DNA of 57,440 nucleotides from Armatimonadota bacterium (GTDB lineage Bacteria > Armatimonadota > Armatimonadia > Armatimonadales > Armatimonadaceae), in assembly GCA_043754515.1 (NCBI GenBank), contig JAYUUO010000033.1, positions 1-57,440 of the forward strand, in the 5' to 3' direction. Every line of letters begins with the position of its first letter. Positions within the stretch are counted from its first letter, which is position 1. The notes under the pieces were generated by a model. That model did not search any database. It was not told where the DNA came from and saw only the letters and a list, made by a program, of their open reading frames with translations. Positions 14,532 through 22,065 of the stretch are shown here, piece by piece. Position numbers and translations under genes: made by a program.

Positions 14532-16058
14532 ATGCCTATGCCGTTTCTACACCGCTACTTCCCCTCCTCCCCCGGAGAAGGATCGGTAGAACGCTTGATT
14601 GATAACGAGTACCAACTGGAGCGCGTCGCGGCCGGAGACGCGGATGACGCCCCGCTCGACGAGTACCTGCGCTTCCTCCACGATACCGGGCGAGCGATCT
14701 CGGTCGAGAGCCTGGCCCCGTTGAGCGGCAAGGACAAGGCGGGAGCGGCGGCCGCCCTTCGGGCAGTGCTGACCGCCCCCGCCCCGGTCGGGACCGCCGC
14801 GTTCTCGCCCGCCGACACGGTAGCGGACGACCGCGCCGCGCACCTTGGCCGACTGCGCGAGCGCGGCGCGCAAGTCGAGCAGGTTTTAAGTAACCCGACG
14901 TTCGCGGGCGGCGAGTCGCAACTCCTGATAGAAGCCGCCCGCGCCCTGAAGAACGGGATGGTATCCGAAGGCCGCGATCAGCAGGAAGAGTTCAAGGATG
15001 CCATCGGGTTGTTCCGCGAGGCGCGGGAAGGTGCCATCGGCAACCGGAACTACATCGTCTGGTTCCAGATCGGATGGGTCCTTTGGAAGCAGGGCGCGGA
15101 GCCGGCAGAGGCGGAGGAAGCCTTCTACCAGGCGTACCGACTCAGTTCGGCGACGCAGGACGTTTTCTACTACCTGAGCCAGCGGCACCGCGCCTACCTC
15201 CAGTTTTTGCAGAACAAACCCGCCGAAGCCTACGACACCATTCAGCGGGCGGTGTTGCTCTACGAATCCGACCCGGACATACTGATGGACGCCGCCCGGT
15301 ACGCCGCCGCCGCCGGGAAGAGTGACGACGCATGCCGGTTCGCGCGCGAACTACTAGGTGCCGAGCCGAGTCAGGGACTCACCCTGTTCGCCGAGACGGC
15401 GTTCGCGCCGGTGTTACCCCTGATCACCGAAGCGGTCTGGCAGGTGTTCGAGCAGGGGGAGCGGCGAGCCGCCGCCGCGGTCGCCCGCCTCGGGACCGCC
15501 CAGACGGATCTTCAGACGGTCTCCGAACGCTCCGGGTTCGTGGTCGCCCCTCCGCCCGAGATGATCGCGGGGGTCGAGGACGCCCGCTCCCTGCTCAAGC
15601 GACACGCCACCGCGCTCTCCTACCCATGGGCACTCGGGGTAGTGCGTACCGCGACTGACCAGGCGAACGCTCTCTACGACTACGCGCGGAAGGCACTGGA
15701 GGACGAGAACGCGGCGATAGATCAACGGCTGGTCCGCCCGCGCCGCCAGATCGAGCGGCTACTCTCGGAACAGAAACGCTGGAAAGAAGACGCCGCCAAA
15801 GTGGTGCGCGCTGCCAAGCAGTCCAAGATTGACCTTTCCTCGCCACCTAGACGTAGTATTTTCGGACGCTACAACCCGGAACACGCGACGCTATACGAGA
15901 ACTACCAAACCGCGCGGGGTCAGATGGAGATAAACGCCCGCGCGGTAAAGGATGAGTTGCCGACTCACGAAGCCGACATCGCGCATGGCGAGGACGTACG
16001 GAGGCGTATCGCGGAGACCATCGCGTGGCTTGAGGAGAGACAGAGAGTGACCATCTGA
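14532..16058 (+). CDS. hypothetical TPR-like/coiled-coil protein
   Basis: Ala-rich helical repeats (WFQIGWVLW..AEEAFYQA; AEAYDTIQRA); C-terminal coiled coil. Confidence 0.6.
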   Translation: MPMPFLHRYFPSSPGEGSVERLIDNEYQLERVAAGDADDAPLDEYLRFLHDTGRAISVESLAPLSGKDKAGAAAALRAVLTAPAPVGTAAFSPADTVADDRAAHLGRLRERGAQVEQVLSNPTFAGGESQLLIEAARALKNGMVSEGRDQQEEFKDAIGLFREAREGAIGNRNYIVWFQIGWVLWKQGAEPAEAEEAFYQAYRLSSATQDVFYYLSQRHRAYLQFLQNKPAEAYDTIQRAVLLYESDPDILMDAARYAAAAGKSDDACRFARELLGAEPSQGLTLFAETAFAPVLPLITEAVWQVFEQGERRAAAAVARLGTAQTDLQTVSERSGFVVAPPPEMIAGVEDARSLLKRHATALSYPWALGVVRTATDQANALYDYARKALEDENAAIDQRLVRPRRQIERLLSEQKRWKEDAAKVVRAAKQSKIDLSSPPRRSIFGRYNPEHATLYENYQTARGQMEINARAVKDELPTHEADIAHGEDVRRRIAETIAWLEERQRVTI

Positions 16059-16149: not shown

Positions 16150-16920
16150 ATGAACGTCAAGCCAATTTCCGACGCGGCGACCGGCGACAGCCGCTCCCGC
16201 TTCGCCTATCACAACGAGATCGAGCCGGTCGAGGGCGGGGTGCGCCCGGTCCCCGAAGCGCGGGACGGGGACGCAGCCCCCGCGAAGAGCGAGCGCAAAG
16301 GCGGCCGGAGCGCGCACGGCACCGCGCCCACCGCCGGGATGAGCGGCGTTCCCGCGCCCGGCGACCGGCTACTCGATATTTCCGAAATCGCCCGCACCGT
16401 CGGGCAATTTTATAAACACCGGTTCTCAGTTACGCGCCGCCCCGGCGATGAGATTGACACTGCGGAGCCGATCACGGGCGAGGTAAATTTGACAAACACC
16501 GGGGATGCCCTAATCCTGCGCGGGCACGCGAAGACAGTGCTTTCCATAGAATGCGCCCGATGTCTGCGCCCGGTTCTGGAGCCAGTCGAAACCGACCTTG
16601 AGGAGGATTTCGATCTGGTCGCGGAGAACTCCGCGTGGCAGTCCGCCGACGATGTGCGGGCGGTGGACGACGACGAGACAGGCGCGGTGATCAAGGGCAA
16701 CATCCTCGACCTCGGCGATCTGCTCCGCCAGTACATCATCCTCGCGGCACCGACGCGCGCCGAATGCCATGACATGTGTGACGAGATCGTACTCCCCGAA
16801 GGCGTGGAACTCAAGCGGGTGGATGAGGTCGCCGCGCCCCCCACGTCCGTGCTGGATTCGCCCCTGAAGCGGCTCGCCGAGTTGATCGCGGCGAAAGAGC
16901 AGCGCGAAAGCGGCGAGTAG
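16150..16920 (+). CDS. yceD: YceD/DUF177 family protein with N-terminal extension
   Basis: ECARCL.PV; ILDLGDLLRQYIILAAP; SPLKRL tail; TACAAT 6 nt upstream of ATG. Confidence 0.85.
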   Translation: MNVKPISDAATGDSRSRFAYHNEIEPVEGGVRPVPEARDGDAAPAKSERKGGRSAHGTAPTAGMSGVPAPGDRLLDISEIARTVGQFYKHRFSVTRRPGDEIDTAEPITGEVNLTNTGDALILRGHAKTVLSIECARCLRPVLEPVETDLEEDFDLVAENSAWQSADDVRAVDDDETGAVIKGNILDLGDLLRQYIILAAPTRAECHDMCDEIVLPEGVELKRVDEVAAPPTSVLDSPLKRLAELIAAKEQRESGE

Positions 16921-16954
16921 TAGCATCCCTGTCGGCTCGCCTTCGCCCCACGCT

Positions 16955-16984
16955 TTGACGCGGGGGACGCGCGTGTGGTATACT
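16955..16984 (+). promoter_or_regulatory. sigma70 promoter with extended -10
   Basis: TTGACG (16955-60), 18 bp, TGg-TATACT (16979-84); TSS predicted ~16991. Confidence 0.8.
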
Positions 16985-16990
16985 CAACCC

Positions 16991-17460
16991 AGAACCGGTA
17001 GGGGGAACCGTTCGCGGCTCCTCCCAACCCCGGTTCACGGATTTTTCCGCGATCTTCCGAGGTTCGCATGAGAGACCCATTCCGTAGGCTGATTCGCTTC
17101 GTAAAAAAGGCAGCAAGGAACGGCGTGGGGACGGACCGAAGTAGCGCGGATGGCTCGCACATTGCTGTGGGGGCACGCCGGGAAATGTTCCCGCCGGTCG
17201 GGCGCGAGAGCGCGTGACAGACGAGGTGCCGGACACAATGTTGGATGGACGCGCCCGCGATCGCCGACTAACCCAAAGGTTAGCGGCACCAGCGCGGTAC
17301 GCCGTCGAGAGAGGGCGTTCGCGCCCCGTCCGTGAGAGGCCGTTTCGCACCTGTTTTGTCACGTTCAACGCCGCCCGTACAGGTTTGTTGCCTGAAAAGC
17401 ACGACCCGCGGCTAGACGACCGTCCCCGACGCGCCCCCCCCGAACAGATACGGATCAGGA
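16991..17460 (+). ncRNA. unassigned large structured RNA / 5' leader
   Basis: More than 10 mutually compatible nested helices found by hand, with UUCG and GAGA tetraloops and G-U pairs that work only on the + strand; no convincing ORF. Confidence 0.65.
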
Positions 17461-17470
17461 GTTTTTACCC

Positions 17471-20400
17471 ATGCGTCGTCGGCCAACCGCCGCCCCCTTC
17501 CTAGATACCGTGGATACCGCGCTCGCGGATACCACGGATGCCCGAATAGAGTCGCGTACGAGCGGCTCCGAAACGAACGAATCGCCAGCGGGCGAAACGT
17601 CCGATGCGAACACCGCCCCCGCCGAAGCCACGGCGGCGGGTGCCCGACCGCGCCGCCCCCGGCGGACGAAAGCGCAGATAGCGGCGGAGGCTACGGAAAC
17701 CACCGACGCCCCTCCCGTCGCGCAAATGATCGCCCCCGAGCAGGACGCCACGCCCGAGGAGACGCCGGACGCCTCTCCTAAACGCGGGCGACGCCCGCGC
17801 AAACCAGCCGCCCAACCAGAGCCGGAACCGGTATCCGTCGAGGCTGTCGAGCCGATAGCCGACCCGCGGGAGCAGACGGACGAGGCCGCGCCGGAGTTGA
17901 TATTACCGGGTTTGGAACCGGACACGCGCCCCGACTCGCCCGGAGGGCCCGAGGCGATGATCGCCGGTGAGACTACCGCCGACGCGGACGCGGCGGCAAT
18001 TGGCGTCGAAGACGCACTCGACCCCGCGCTCGGTGATCTGCTCTCCGAGAGCGAAGCCATACTCGGAGAGGTACTCGGCGAAACCACGTCCGGCGACCGC
18101 GCGCCCCGTAGCAAGCGTAATAATCGGCGCGGGCGCGGGCGGGACCGTAGCGCGCCGGACGCCGCGCCGAACCTGGCTACGCCCCAGTCGGGCAGTGGGC
18201 CGCTACGAAAACGAGGCCCACGCGTTCTAGCACGAACCATGCCCCTGCCGATACTCACCCCGACGGGCGAAATGGAGCCAGAGACGTTGCTATTGCAGCC
18301 GACCGTACCCGGTCGGAAGCGCGGCATCCGGACTGTTCGCTCCACGCGGCGCATCCTTACCCTTGACGGGATCACCGTGGTATCTCTGGCGCAAGCCGAC
18401 ACCCTGCTCGGTAGCGTCTCCTTCATACCCGGAGCGGCGGGTGTTCCCGATCCCGCGTTCTCCGAGTTGCCGCTGTCCGTGGTGCCGGTAGCCGAATACG
18501 ATCCCCTCCCCGCCGATCAGCTCGAGCGGTTGCCGCTCGTAGCCGTCGCGCCGCAGAACGGCATGCCGGTGCTGTCCGTGAACGGCGTCGCGACCCTGCC
18601 CGCGTTTCTATTCGTCAACACCGAGGTCGCCGACGAGCCGGAAGTCGCCCGCGAAATCGCCATCCGCCAGATCAAACGTGCTTACGAGGCCGGGGTGCGC
18701 CTGTTCACCCTGCCCGCGCATCTCCCCTGGAAGCGCAAAGCCGGTGACCGCCGCTACGACTCACTCGACGCCGTGCTCAGCCTGGTCGCGGAATCCGCGC
18801 CGGACGCACTGGTGTTGCCCCGCCTGATATTCTCCCCGCTCGCCTCCTGGGAGCGAGCGAACCCGGACGAGATCGCCGCCTACGCGAGCGGCGAAACGGG
18901 CGATGTGTCCATCGGGAGCGAGCTGTTCTGGGGCGGGGAGGCGAAGGACGCTCTCCGCGCCGCCATCGAGCATTTAGCACAGAGCGAGCATGCCGCTCAT
19001 GTCCTGGGCGTATACCTGGAGCACGGCGAGTGGTTCCAGTCGAAGGGTGTCGGCGCGGACTGTTCTCCCGCTAACACGAACGCTTTCCGCTCCTGGCTTA
19101 AGACACACTACCGCAACAGCGAGGTGGCCTTGCGCGCGGCATGGTACGACGGCGCGGTGACCTTCGATACGGCGGAGATCCCGTCCGCCGAGATGTTCAC
19201 CCAACTAGCGACCGTGAACGCCGCGCAACCGGTCTTTCTCGGGGACCGGGAACGGCGGGCAGGCGACTTCTACGCTTACACCAGTGACATCACGGCCCAG
19301 AGGATCCTGAGACTCGCCTCCGCCGCGAAAGAGGCCAGCGGCGGGCGGCTCGCCGTCGCCGCCTCGTACGGCTACACGCTAGAGATCGCGCGGCCGAATT
19401 GCGGGCACTACGCGCTCGCCCAGGTGCTCGCCTCCCCGGACGTTGACATACTGACCGCGCCGTTCTCCTACACCGGTCGGTTGCCCGGCGGCTCGGCCCC
19501 GCTCCCCGTGCCCGTGGACTCGGTCCACTTGAGCGGGAAGTTATTCGTCGCCGAGGACGACGCGAAGACGCACCTCGCGCTCCGACCGACCGAGGACGCC
19601 TATAACCCGAAGATCGCCACCGACGACGGAACCCGTTCCGTGCATGCGCGCAACGTCGGAACCGTGATCGCGAAGGGTTGCGGAATCTCCTGGATGGATC
19701 TCTGGGGCGAGGGGTGGCTTGATGACGACGCGACGTGGCAACACCTCGGCGGTCTCGTCCGCCTCATGGCTACCATGGCCGACATGCGCCGCGCCGCGCC
19801 GACGCCCGTGCCCGCCCCGCATGTCGCGGTGTTCATTGACGAGCGGTCGTTCTTCGACATGCGCGGCGACGAGGAACCGGCGATCCTGCCGCAACTGATC
19901 GGCCGACACCGCGACGTGTTCGCGCGGGCCGGGGCGTCTGTCGGCTTCTACCTGCTCTCCGATCTGCTCAAGCCGGAGTTCCCCGAGTCGCCGCGCCTGT
20001 TCATTTTTCTGAACGCGTTCCACCTGCCGGTAGCCATTCGCACGGCATTGCAGAACCGGTGGCAGGATAACGGGCGGACATTCGCCTGGTTATTCGCGCC
20101 GGGTGCCTGCGAGTCGGGTAACATTGCTGAGCTTGGCGAGACCATTGGCATCCAGTTGCGCCTCCAACCCTGGGGATCCCGCACGGGAACCGTGGTCACG
20201 GAAGGGCGGTTCCCGCTCACCGAGAACGCAAAGGGGGAGCGGTTCGGCGAAGAGAAGCGCGTCAACCCGTCGTTCACCGTGGTAGACCCGAAGGCGCAGA
20301 TTCTGGGCGAGTATACGACTAGTGGGAGTCCTTCCCTCGCCTACCGGAAACATCCGCGCTGGCAATCGGTGTTCGTCGGGGAGCGGGATCTACCGCTCCC

Positions 20401-21712
20401 GCTGGTGCGCGGCCTGTACCGGCTCGCGGACGTTCCTGTGGTAACGACCGACGATGACACGCTCCAGATCGCGGGCGACGGCTTCGTCGCGGTTCATTCG
20501 GCGCAGAGCGGGGGGATGACGCTCTACAGCCCAACCCGCGCGGAAGCCGCCGTCTACGACGCGGTGACCGGCGAACTGCTGGCCGGGGTCGGCTTCGGGG
20601 CACGCGCCGAAACAGTGGCGCGGGCCACGCGTCTGCTGATATGGGCACCGCAAGAGGAGATCACCGCCCGCTTCGCGGTCACGCCCGAGTTATGGGAGGG
20701 GGCACCGCCCGCGCTAACGGGAGACGAACTGCCGGTCATCGCGAAGGCGTTCGTGTTCGAGGCGGGTACCTCCGCGCCGCCCGGACCGCGTCCGGCGGGG
20801 GTTCCCGCCACCGCGCCGCAACCCACGCGCCTCTACCCGGTGGAGCTTTCGGTGTCCGCCGAGGACATCGCGCAGTTCGAGGCGGCGCTGTCCGGCGAGA
20901 TCGCGCTCCTCGATAAGGATATGGAAACGACCGCCGAGGCCGAAGCCAGCCAGAAGAAGCGGCGGCGGCGGCGACGCCGTGGCGGGCGTGCCGAGGACGG
21001 TGTCACGGACGAGTCCACGGGGAATGAGGGCGTAGACGATGAGGAAGGGACCGCCGCGACCGATAACGACGCGGTGGACGTGGTGTTCGATATAGCCGAA
21101 GTGGCGCGTGGCGCACGGATGTTCGACGTTCTGTTGCCGCTCGACGCGGGCACGGAAGACGGTGGAGAAGAGGATGCCGCGGACGATCCCCGGTTCGCGG
21201 CGGCGGACGCGGCACCTACCGATCCGGCGGCGGATTTCATGGCGCGGCTCTTCTCGCTACAGACCTTACCTGTCGAGGAGCAGATCACGGGTGGCGAAGG
21301 GGATGCGGTCCGCCGTCTGTCGCTTGACGAGCTACTGCCCTTCTCGCAAACGCCGGACGAGCCGACTGACCCGTCGCGCTTCGACTTCGAGGAGCGGCCA
21401 CTCGAAGCGGACGGCTACACGCAGGTCCGGCTAGAGTCGGGCGACGGGCAGCCGGACGACGGGGCAGAAGCCGAGGCGGTTGGGGAAGACTCCGAACCGG
21501 AGTTGCCGGTCGGACTGCTCATGGGTAGCGGGCGCGGACGACGAACGCGCCCCGCGGGGGCCGGCGGGTTCACGACCCGGCTACGCCGCCGCGCCGAACG
21601 CTCGCCCGCCGAAGGCGGCGCGGACGCGGACGGCGCGGGAGATGGCGCGACGGCGGCGGTGTCGCCCGCCGACAATAGTTCGGATCCGGAAGCGGGTTCG
21701 GCAGGCGGCTAG
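17471..21712 (+). CDS. large GH42/beta-galactosidase-like protein with long disordered N- and C-terminal regions
   Basis: AGGAG RBS at 17457-61; core motifs GEWF, AFRSWLKTHY..AAW..VTFDTAEIP, LFVAEDDAKTH; low-complexity acidic and Arg-rich termini. Confidence 0.7.
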   Translation: MRRRPTAAPFLDTVDTALADTTDARIESRTSGSETNESPAGETSDANTAPAEATAAGARPRRPRRTKAQIAAEATETTDAPPVAQMIAPEQDATPEETPDASPKRGRRPRKPAAQPEPEPVSVEAVEPIADPREQTDEAAPELILPGLEPDTRPDSPGGPEAMIAGETTADADAAAIGVEDALDPALGDLLSESEAILGEVLGETTSGDRAPRSKRNNRRGRGRDRSAPDAAPNLATPQSGSGPLRKRGPRVLARTMPLPILTPTGEMEPETLLLQPTVPGRKRGIRTVRSTRRILTLDGITVVSLAQADTLLGSVSFIPGAAGVPDPAFSELPLSVVPVAEYDPLPADQLERLPLVAVAPQNGMPVLSVNGVATLPAFLFVNTEVADEPEVAREIAIRQIKRAYEAGVRLFTLPAHLPWKRKAGDRRYDSLDAVLSLVAESAPDALVLPRLIFSPLASWERANPDEIAAYASGETGDVSIGSELFWGGEAKDALRAAIEHLAQSEHAAHVLGVYLEHGEWFQSKGVGADCSPANTNAFRSWLKTHYRNSEVALRAAWYDGAVTFDTAEIPSAEMFTQLATVNAAQPVFLGDRERRAGDFYAYTSDITAQRILRLASAAKEASGGRLAVAASYGYTLEIARPNCGHYALAQVLASPDVDILTAPFSYTGRLPGGSAPLPVPVDSVHLSGKLFVAEDDAKTHLALRPTEDAYNPKIATDDGTRSVHARNVGTVIAKGCGISWMDLWGEGWLDDDATWQHLGGLVRLMATMADMRRAAPTPVPAPHVAVFIDERSFFDMRGDEEPAILPQLIGRHRDVFARAGASVGFYLLSDLLKPEFPESPRLFIFLNAFHLPVAIRTALQNRWQDNGRTFAWLFAPGACESGNIAELGETIGIQLRLQPWGSRTGTVVTEGRFPLTENAKGERFGEEKRVNPSFTVVDPKAQILGEYTTSGSPSLAYRKHPRWQSVFVGERDLPLPLVRGLYRLADVPVVTTDDDTLQIAGDGFVAVHSAQSGGMTLYSPTRAEAAVYDAVTGELLAGVGFGARAETVARATRLLIWAPQEEITARFAVTPELWEGAPPALTGDELPVIAKAFVFEAGTSAPPGPRPAGVPATAPQPTRLYPVELSVSAEDIAQFEAALSGEIALLDKDMETTAEAEASQKKRRRRRRRGGRAEDGVTDESTGNEGVDDEEGTAATDNDAVDVVFDIAEVARGARMFDVLLPLDAGTEDGGEEDAADDPRFAAADAAPTDPAADFMARLFSLQTLPVEEQITGGEGDAVRRLSLDELLPFSQTPDEPTDPSRFDFEERPLEADGYTQVRLESGDGQPDDGAEAEAVGEDSEPELPVGLLMGSGRGRRTRPAGAGGFTTRLRRRAERSPAEGGADADGAGDGATAAVSPADNSSDPEAGSAGG

Positions 21713-21789: not shown

Positions 21790-21861
21790 GGTCGGTTGGC
21801 TCAGTGGTAGAGCACTGCCTTCACACGGCAGGGGTCACAAGTTCGAATCTTGTACCGACCA
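21790..21861 (+). tRNA. tRNA-Val(CAC), CCA not encoded
   Basis: Acceptor GGTCGGT/ACCGACC; D arm GCTC/GAGC; anticodon arm CTGCC-TTCACAC-GGCAG; T arm ACAAG-TTCGAAT-CTTGT. Confidence 0.97.
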
Positions 21862-21995: not shown

Positions 21996-22065
21996 GCGCT
22001 GGCTTAAGGCGCAAAGCACTTCTTTGGTAAAGAAGAGGTCGCGGGTCCGATCCTCACCCCGCGCT
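21996..22065 (+). pseudogene. degenerate tRNA-Thr(GGT)
   Basis: D stem GCTT/AAGC; intact anticodon arm CTTCT-TTGGTAA-AGAAG; AGGTC; T loop TCCGATC with one stem mismatch; acceptor out of register. Confidence 0.65.

Follow-up and report, generated by a model that had tools for sequence, protein, structure and literature searches.

A long, structured 5′ leader with a conserved element beside the Shine-Dalgarno sequence of a single-copy Armatimonadota gene

The window, by which we mean the whole stretch of DNA analyzed, comprises 57,440 nt from an Armatimonadota bacterium, placed in Armatimonadaceae by the source names of its closest proteins (contig JAYUUO010000033.1 of GenBank assembly GCA_043754515.1, positions 1 to 57,440; genome G000 in our comparisons). 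On its forward strand, a gene encoding a protein of 1413 aa (17471..21712) is preceded by a sigma-70-type promoter at 16955..16984, composed of TTGACG (16955-60), an 18-nt spacer, and the extended -10 box TG-n-TATACT (16976-84), exactly where an earlier model-made reading of the letters (hereafter the sequence-only reading) had placed it. This is the sole promoter-like site between 15500 and 18000, where 0.4 would be expected. The AGGAG ribosome-binding site (17457-61, within a Shine-Dalgarno [SD] region at 17457..17463) and the ATG at 17471 that opens the 1413-aa frame were likewise confirmed in the sequence. Upstream, and outside the element, lies yceD (DUF177; 16150..16920, forward strand; Pfam YceD, E 4.9e-14), and a gene for a 508-aa TPR-like protein (14532-16058) is syntenic with yceD and the leader in G000, G001, and G002. 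A link between yceD and the leader was considered and dropped, as yceD precedes the orthologue in only 3 of 41 regions and in G003 resides on another contig before a different gene. On the other side of the locus, a degenerate tRNA-like sequence (21998-22064; 30 bits) begins 140 nt past tRNA-Val (21790-21861); it has a GGT anticodon loop and a broken T arm, was missed by ARAGORN, and is possibly a tRNA-Thr remnant or an integration scar.

The promoter can be assigned to the downstream gene, because it precedes 32 of 37 orthologues at distances that give promoter-to-start leaders of 46-569 nt. For this survey 40 upstream regions were fetched, four without a usable start were dropped, and 37 were counted with the window's own genome included; the matching -10 box was mostly accompanied by a -35 box and/or the TG. 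In a second set of orthologues from other families (f8 and f27), many also have a matching -10 box, with the same spread of lengths. The promoter being the gene's own, the 480-nt stretch is therefore the 5′ leader of the mRNA of a single-copy Armatimonadota gene and not a free-standing RNA gene. In keeping with this, both homolog and motif searches place the leader between promoter and start codon, on the same strand, and always with the same gene.

One option put forward in the sequence-only reading, that of a new large noncoding RNA, is weakened because the promoter belongs to a gene that in relatives has leaders as short as 46 nt and because no intrinsic terminator was found in the leader. 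A related possibility is that Rho-dependent termination or a nuclease cut releases the leader as a separate stable RNA, with the downstream gene expressed by read-through. Rho is encoded in the genome, and in both RNA-labelled runs the only contig matching in full length on a 2-kb stretch falls within the leader: a 165-nt contig, 100% identical to 17055-17219, in an ice metatranscriptome (X20), which reveals neither strand nor transcript ends, and a contig at 17090-17290 in X19, a run labelled RNA but probably DNA. Against such a release, one short contig per run does not rank the parts of the transcript, G is at least as frequent as C and the heavy structure speaks against a rut site, the 3′ strand of a conserved clamp helix (below) abuts the SD, and the same promoter drives 46-nt leaders elsewhere. 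We regard a released RNA as improbable.

The leader did not belong to any known class of RNA for which we searched. The covariance-model search called for by the sequence-only reading found no Rfam 15 family in the leader, the window as a whole giving two tRNA matches only; a permissive scan (E ≤10) of 16800-17600 returned two minus-strand matches at chance level (18 and 12 bits, where the thresholds are 53 and 38), and no match was found inside the leaders of 12 homologous loci. That reading was also correct that this is neither RNase P RNA nor tmRNA: neither occurs in the window, and both were located elsewhere in the genome (a type A RNase P RNA on contig C110, 258 bits; one tmRNA by ARAGORN). 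With regard to repeats or mobile elements (REP, MITE), blastn and nhmmer found the leader to be single copy in the genome. A pattern scan of metagenomes for leader homologs gave 54 matches, none of them a homolog, and a search of viral contigs gave none. A literature search covering titles and the beginnings of abstracts found nothing on this Armatimonadota leader or gene. To our knowledge, Armatimonadota are scarcely studied at the RNA level. The locus is a new, lineage-restricted, long structured and probably regulatory leader outside Rfam 15.

Folding energy by itself proved a poor guide to the structure. The leader region folds at -213.2 kcal/mol (z -3.25), which none of 100 shuffles equals, and 16991-17470 alone has a z of -3.9, so that the expectation of folding better than dinucleotide shuffles held; however, a z of -3.25 or lower was also reached by 6 of 44 random upstream intergenic 480-nt control windows from the same genome (44 of 402 candidates, with 12 shuffles each). 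An intergenic control window, C226:2186-2666, had a z of about -24 and is probably a long inverted repeat or array. The z-scores of the leaders in G001 (-1.3), G005 (0.6), and G016 (0.6) are unremarkable. The region contains 227 possible helices of at least 6 bp, compared with 171-221 in eight shuffles, and a list of helices alone is not evidence because the shuffles hold nearly as many; the sequence-only reading was right to ask for covariation.

That reading had proposed a domain of ~375 nt closed by 17081-96/17441-54, with a nested series of helices. All ten of its two-strand helices that were checked pair fully in the window, and the domain corresponds to the minimum-energy fold of the window's own genome, but it is lost in the homologs. 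When its helices were carried to three homologs by MAFFT alignment, which is uncertain in variable parts, 0 of 12 were fully paired in any of them. The closing helix 17081-86/17449-54 retained 4, 4, and 5 of six pairs and its continuation 17093-96/17441-44 none of four in each homolog; 17108-16/17385-93 retained 4, 4, and 3 of nine, and 17144-48/17250-54 none of five. Two nested helices survived in part, neither completely: 17179-84/17188-93 (5/6 in all three) and 17131-36/17328-33 (5/6, 4/6, and 4/6). The two mutually exclusive pairings suggested as a switch are also not conserved (4/8-6/8 and 2/7-4/7 pairs). By contrast, its 5′ hairpin and local hairpins at 17202-13, 17263-87, and 17313-26 have counterparts in the same places in G001 and G002. 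Judged from the homologs, most of the fold first proposed is wrong, while the broader reading of an unassigned, structured noncoding RNA is borne out as one under selection.

The comparison supports an alternative fold composed of a 5′ hairpin, a first domain, a 22-nt element (M), and a second domain closed beside the SD. Leaders in G001 and G002 share 58-74% identity with the window's. Left unconstrained, they adopt a 5′ hairpin, domain 1 as a hairpin, and a multibranched domain 2 that ends just before the SD; these helices are also available to the window's own leader, through compensating substitutions. The 5′-terminal hairpin P1 (16991..17036; base 16992-95/17033-36) starts at a predicted +1 of A16991 and has a p of 0.96; an A-U/G-C change is seen among the homologs and one more change in G003, and run X5 shows two strain differences within P1 that are noncompensatory. 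A hairpin that starts at +2 and leads into a purine-UUU tract, scored by a fixed rule with one further match discounted and no shuffle control, occurs in 22 of 40 leaders and is the one feature that extends down to those of 46 nt. Past P1, the tract GGAUUUUU (17039..17046) is invariant in the four leaders of genus g1. Domain 1 (17046..17150) is a genus-specific long hairpin formed by 17047-51/17145-49, 17061-66/17132-37, 17077-84/17121-28, and 17088-91/17111-14, with an SCI of 0.85 for the consensus fold, a z of -6.2, and four two-sided changes. Domain 2 (17169..17438) is closed by the clamp helix P3 (17169-74/17433-38), continues with 17179-82/17425-28, 17186-89/17415-18, and 17191-94/17408-11, and has inner helices 17217-20/17356-59, 17224-28/17348-52, and 17242-48/17326-32; its unguided consensus energy is weak (z -1.6). 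The local hairpin at 17202..17213 (GCGC-GAGA-GCGC) keeps its place in all four g1 leaders and competes with 17217-20/17356-59, the one at 17263..17287 retains pairing in G001 and G002 despite replaced sequence, and the one at 17313..17326 has counterparts in G001 (p 0.97) and G002 (p 0.96) and is absent from the minimum-energy fold of the window's own genome.

Several measures of covariation bear on this fold. In the three-way alignment 97% of cells are paired, and two-sided changes occur in 9 of 60 pairs, a count that excludes one helix of the shared fold, compared with 3.3 ± 1.5 in shuffles; this count leans towards the shared fold because the structure was derived from the same three sequences. 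Unguided two-sided changes were not significant (16 against 12.2 ± 2.8, with 3 of 25 shuffles as high). The leader consensus energy has a z of -7.3 against column shuffles, and coding controls gave 0.6, -1.8, and -0.1. A stronger test is provided by a fourth copy, in G003, which is out of sample and was found after the fold was set: R2, a model of the 5′ part, matches it with an E of 8.4e-10, and it too lies between the promoter and the same gene. The G003 leader has a folding z of -5.9, and its unconstrained fold contains counterparts of 9 of the 12 helices. Seven of these were matched through sequence anchors and two through their location, and both P1 and P3 (p 0.99 for the latter) include pair types new to the comparison; inner domain 2 has been replaced, and this inner part and one short helix are without counterpart. 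Taken over these four sequences only, the secondary structure is supported by covariation, most strongly in domain 1 and P3. Relative to the full-length minimum of the window's own genome, the shared fold is 11-13 kcal/mol less stable. Domain 1 has a p of 0.97-0.98 in prefixes up to nt 400 and therefore, on kinetic grounds, should form first.

Element M (GDCUC-RCACAWUG-YYGUGGGRG; 17152..17173, forward strand) combines a possible anti-SD, a conserved core, and the 5′ strand of the clamp. It is present in the four g1 leaders and recurs exactly in G005 and G016 of genus g3, whose leaders are 250 nt compared with 500 nt in g1; in every one of these leaders, P3 joins its G-tract to a C-tract immediately preceding the SD. 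Across the six genomes, P3 shows G-C/A-U and C-G/U-A/G-C exchanges, so that the 3′ part of M covaries with a strand 260 nt away. M occurs once in its own genome, and of eight exact matches among GTDB species genomes, five are in the leader of the same gene, the three outside Armatimonadota having neither promoter nor gene context and being near the number expected by chance. Twelve one-mismatch matches elsewhere in the phylum sample were also set aside, the seven fetched all lacking gene context, and of 55 leaders tested, the remaining 49 gave no significant match to M; its likeness to stretches in g2, g10, and g11 leaders was likewise not significant. At the other end of M, 17152-56 is able to pair with the SD at 17459-63. 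All five pairs of this GDCUC/GAGUU helix are possible in each of the four g1 leaders, with one one-sided change and zero two-sided changes, and 3-4 pairs only are possible in g3. Its p is 0.61 in G003 and 0.14 in G002, and forcing it costs 2.4-8.5 kcal/mol in three of the four g1 leaders; as computed, the two candidate states are nearly isoenergetic, within 1-2 kcal/mol. A temperature switch was rejected, as SD accessibility is the same at 37, 15, and 4°C.

Beyond these two genera, some leaders of the same gene contain a second motif, R1, of 50-90 nt, whose features include a doubled GUGAGC and a tandem GA-like internal loop, also outside Rfam (loci include L044:3055-3106, L039:1568-1633 on the minus strand, L040:2735-2829, and L177:1501-1566). 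A search of 61 genomes gave nine strong matches, all in leaders of this gene, including G013 and G015 from outside the training set; R1 was thereby located in five genera, with two g3 leaders added by sequence. In these g3 leaders both strands of R1 lie directly behind M. The R1 model has zero matches in g1 leaders, and from the alignment behind M the outer stem 17186-94/17408-18 may be a diverged equivalent, which replaced the hairpin at 17256-97 as the candidate remnant; the apical part of this equivalent would have grown from ~20 to ~215 nt. The window's leader may accordingly be read as a much expanded version of a modular family leader, with much of its 480 nt being a lineage-specific expansion. 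Many orthologues have leaders of 46-80 nt only, and leader length is unrelated to the length of the protein's arms (Spearman 0.04, n = 32). Long, unrelated-looking leaders of 290-570 nt are also found in f8, f27, and G014 (L136, L137, L142, L145, L147, and L038; z -3.2 in G014), which suggests repeated independent expansion. In genus g5, the region immediately upstream of the orthologue contains a ZMP/ZTP riboswitch in the opposite orientation (L053:2587-2670, minus strand).

The conservation of M and of the R1 GTGAGC repeat at the level of sequence, together with a 49-codon ORF with an SD-like site in the window's own leader, could reflect DNA sites, such as a repressor operator within transcribed DNA, or a short upstream ORF. 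We give this reading very little weight: no ORF with a common start and stop is shared by the three leaders compared, which, together with the lack of a terminator, also speaks against a leader-peptide attenuator, M occurs once in the window's own genome, and its 3′ part covaries.

The downstream gene is matched in 57 of 61 relatives, nearly always by one match, and is present in 145 of 301 genomes sampled across the phylum, in whole families; in four other families it was matched in 17/17, 31/31, 17/18, and 15/15 genomes. Its product consists of a GH42-like three-domain core (encoded by 18500-20698) flanked on each side by a disordered arm of ~340 aa rich in Arg clusters and acidic residues, the N-arm being net acidic (40 R+K compared with 51 D+E). 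Neither Pfam, including PF02449, nor NCBIfam matches the 1413-aa protein, a PDB sequence search found nothing, no signal peptide is apparent, and single-sequence structure prediction reached a pLDDT of 36; PF02449 was found on 8 of 120 homologs among the matches listed. AlphaFold2 models the core with a pLDDT of 94, and Foldseek relates it to GH42 beta-galactosidases of clan GH-A (PDB 3tts, 4ucf, and 4oif; E 5e-26, TM 0.6-0.65). The predicted model contains a TIM barrel, trimerization and C-terminal domains, and two catalytic Glu residues after barrel strands 4 and 7, a placement read from the strand order of the model; both Glu are invariant in 68 sequences. It differs from these enzymes in its low identity (13-14%), in the missing family matches, and in the ~680 residues of disordered arms. 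Poly-Arg runs occur in 119 of 121 homologous proteins longer than 900 aa, an L-x-[DE]-L-L-P motif in 70 of 121 homologs (N-terminal in family f8), and shorter armless paralogues of 700-900 aa exist. The gene is not RNase E or Rho, both being encoded elsewhere in the genome (RNase E/G on contig C229, Rho on another contig).

As the gene is enzyme-like with both catalytic Glu retained, M adjoins the SD, and two near-isoenergetic states can be computed, the leader could be a riboswitch for a hydrolase-linked metabolite such as a sugar or sugar-phosphate, the anti-SD helix serving as its expression platform. We consider this unlikely, as a compact, widespread aptamer is missing (M is confined to two genera and R1 to others, with neither in Capsulimonadaceae-level relatives), there is no Rfam similarity, and the alternative pairings of the sequence-only reading are not conserved. 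A passive structured spacer, made of tolerated self-folding insertions whose pairing stabilizes the mRNA and keeps the SD from misfolding without any regulation, is a more serious contender, although still a doubtful one. It agrees with the more than tenfold variation in leader length among orthologues, with the restriction of domain 1 to one genus and the replacement of inner domain 2 in G003, and with the occurrence, as an upper estimate, of 18 of 168 near-consensus promoters at least 450 nt before the next called gene in the same genome. However, it has no need of conserved, weakly paired sequence such as the core of M in two genera or the loop of R1 in six. Regulation is preferred because the core of M is conserved yet weakly paired.

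Our preferred interpretation, for and against which we see the scales as roughly level, is a previously undescribed cis-regulatory leader in which a conserved element can pair with the SD and translation is gated by a bound protein, which may be the one encoded downstream; that the leader controls the amount of protein made is, from the sequence comparisons, probable. Transcription would begin at the gene's own conserved promoter, with a predicted start near 16991. P1 would cap the 5′ end, presumably in a protective role, and domain 1 would fold locally during synthesis, consistent with the covariation in both. Domain 2 would then fold back, with the clamp 17169-74/17433-38, supported across genera, setting M beside the ribosome-binding site. 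The GDCUC end of M would pair with the SD only marginally, as the weak computed helix indicates, and access to the SD could therefore be tipped either way; a helix this marginal would fit stabilization by a bound factor. The weakly paired RCACAWUG core is the putative protein site, and the first candidate ligand would be the Arg-rich arms of the gene's own product. The outcome would be a feedback loop like those of rne or ribosomal-protein leaders, setting translation and probably mRNA lifetime.

Ribosomal-protein-type leaders are translational operators with a conserved RNA element for the encoded protein, and the leader described here resembles them in having a conserved RNA element beside the SD as a proposed site for its product; it differs in matching no Rfam leader family and in encoding a hydrolase-fold protein. 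The 5′ UTR of Escherichia coli rne, as far as outlined in PMC13692253, is a 361-nt, multi-hairpin leader through which RNase E autoregulates. From that outline, the two leaders are alike in being long and multi-hairpin with a branched domain, in a structure that outlasts sequence, and in a product with long, disordered Arg-rich regions (PMC13692253). Unlike rne, the present leader has no sequence or Rfam likeness to it, the gene is not a nuclease, and the conserved part abuts the SD. Arg-rich disordered insertion regions are also described in Rho, where such extensions raise RNA affinity, in an account whose main text contains no Armatimonad- taxa (PMC11347177). The regulated protein likewise has Arg-rich disordered extensions, and by analogy with the RNase E and Rho regions its arms would be the obvious ligand. 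The rho gene of the window's own genome (C175, L182) encodes a ~190-aa Arg-rich disordered N-arm and is preceded by a ~305-nt leader that follows a similar extended -10 box; neither its arm nor its leader is significantly similar to those studied here, and a short motif common to the two arms was rejected, as its occurrence in 1 of 121 homologs equals chance. The idea of an autoregulatory leader, raised in the sequence-only reading, is retained as a lead to follow, and its most specific form, in which a GH-fold protein with arms like those of Rho and RNase E binds RNA and represses its own translation via a modular leader, seems to us an outside possibility, doubtful as it stands.

M and R1 are both short motifs open to experimental test and belong to a single conserved gene, whose leader offers a clear case of regulatory-leader expansion, from ~50 to 570 nt, about an SD-proximal stem that stays fixed. 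If the most specific form of autoregulation is true, a clamp at the SD is kept while the rest of the leader grows and shrinks tenfold, upstream of a gene that is single copy across several Armatimonadota classes. If the protein does not bind, this would be a new yet ordinary lineage-specific leader. If it does bind, a hydrolase-fold protein would join the few enzymes with control over their own mRNA, and a function would be found for its arms; the protein may then be an unrecognized RNA-associated scaffold joining sugar metabolism to post-transcriptional control in Armatimonadota.
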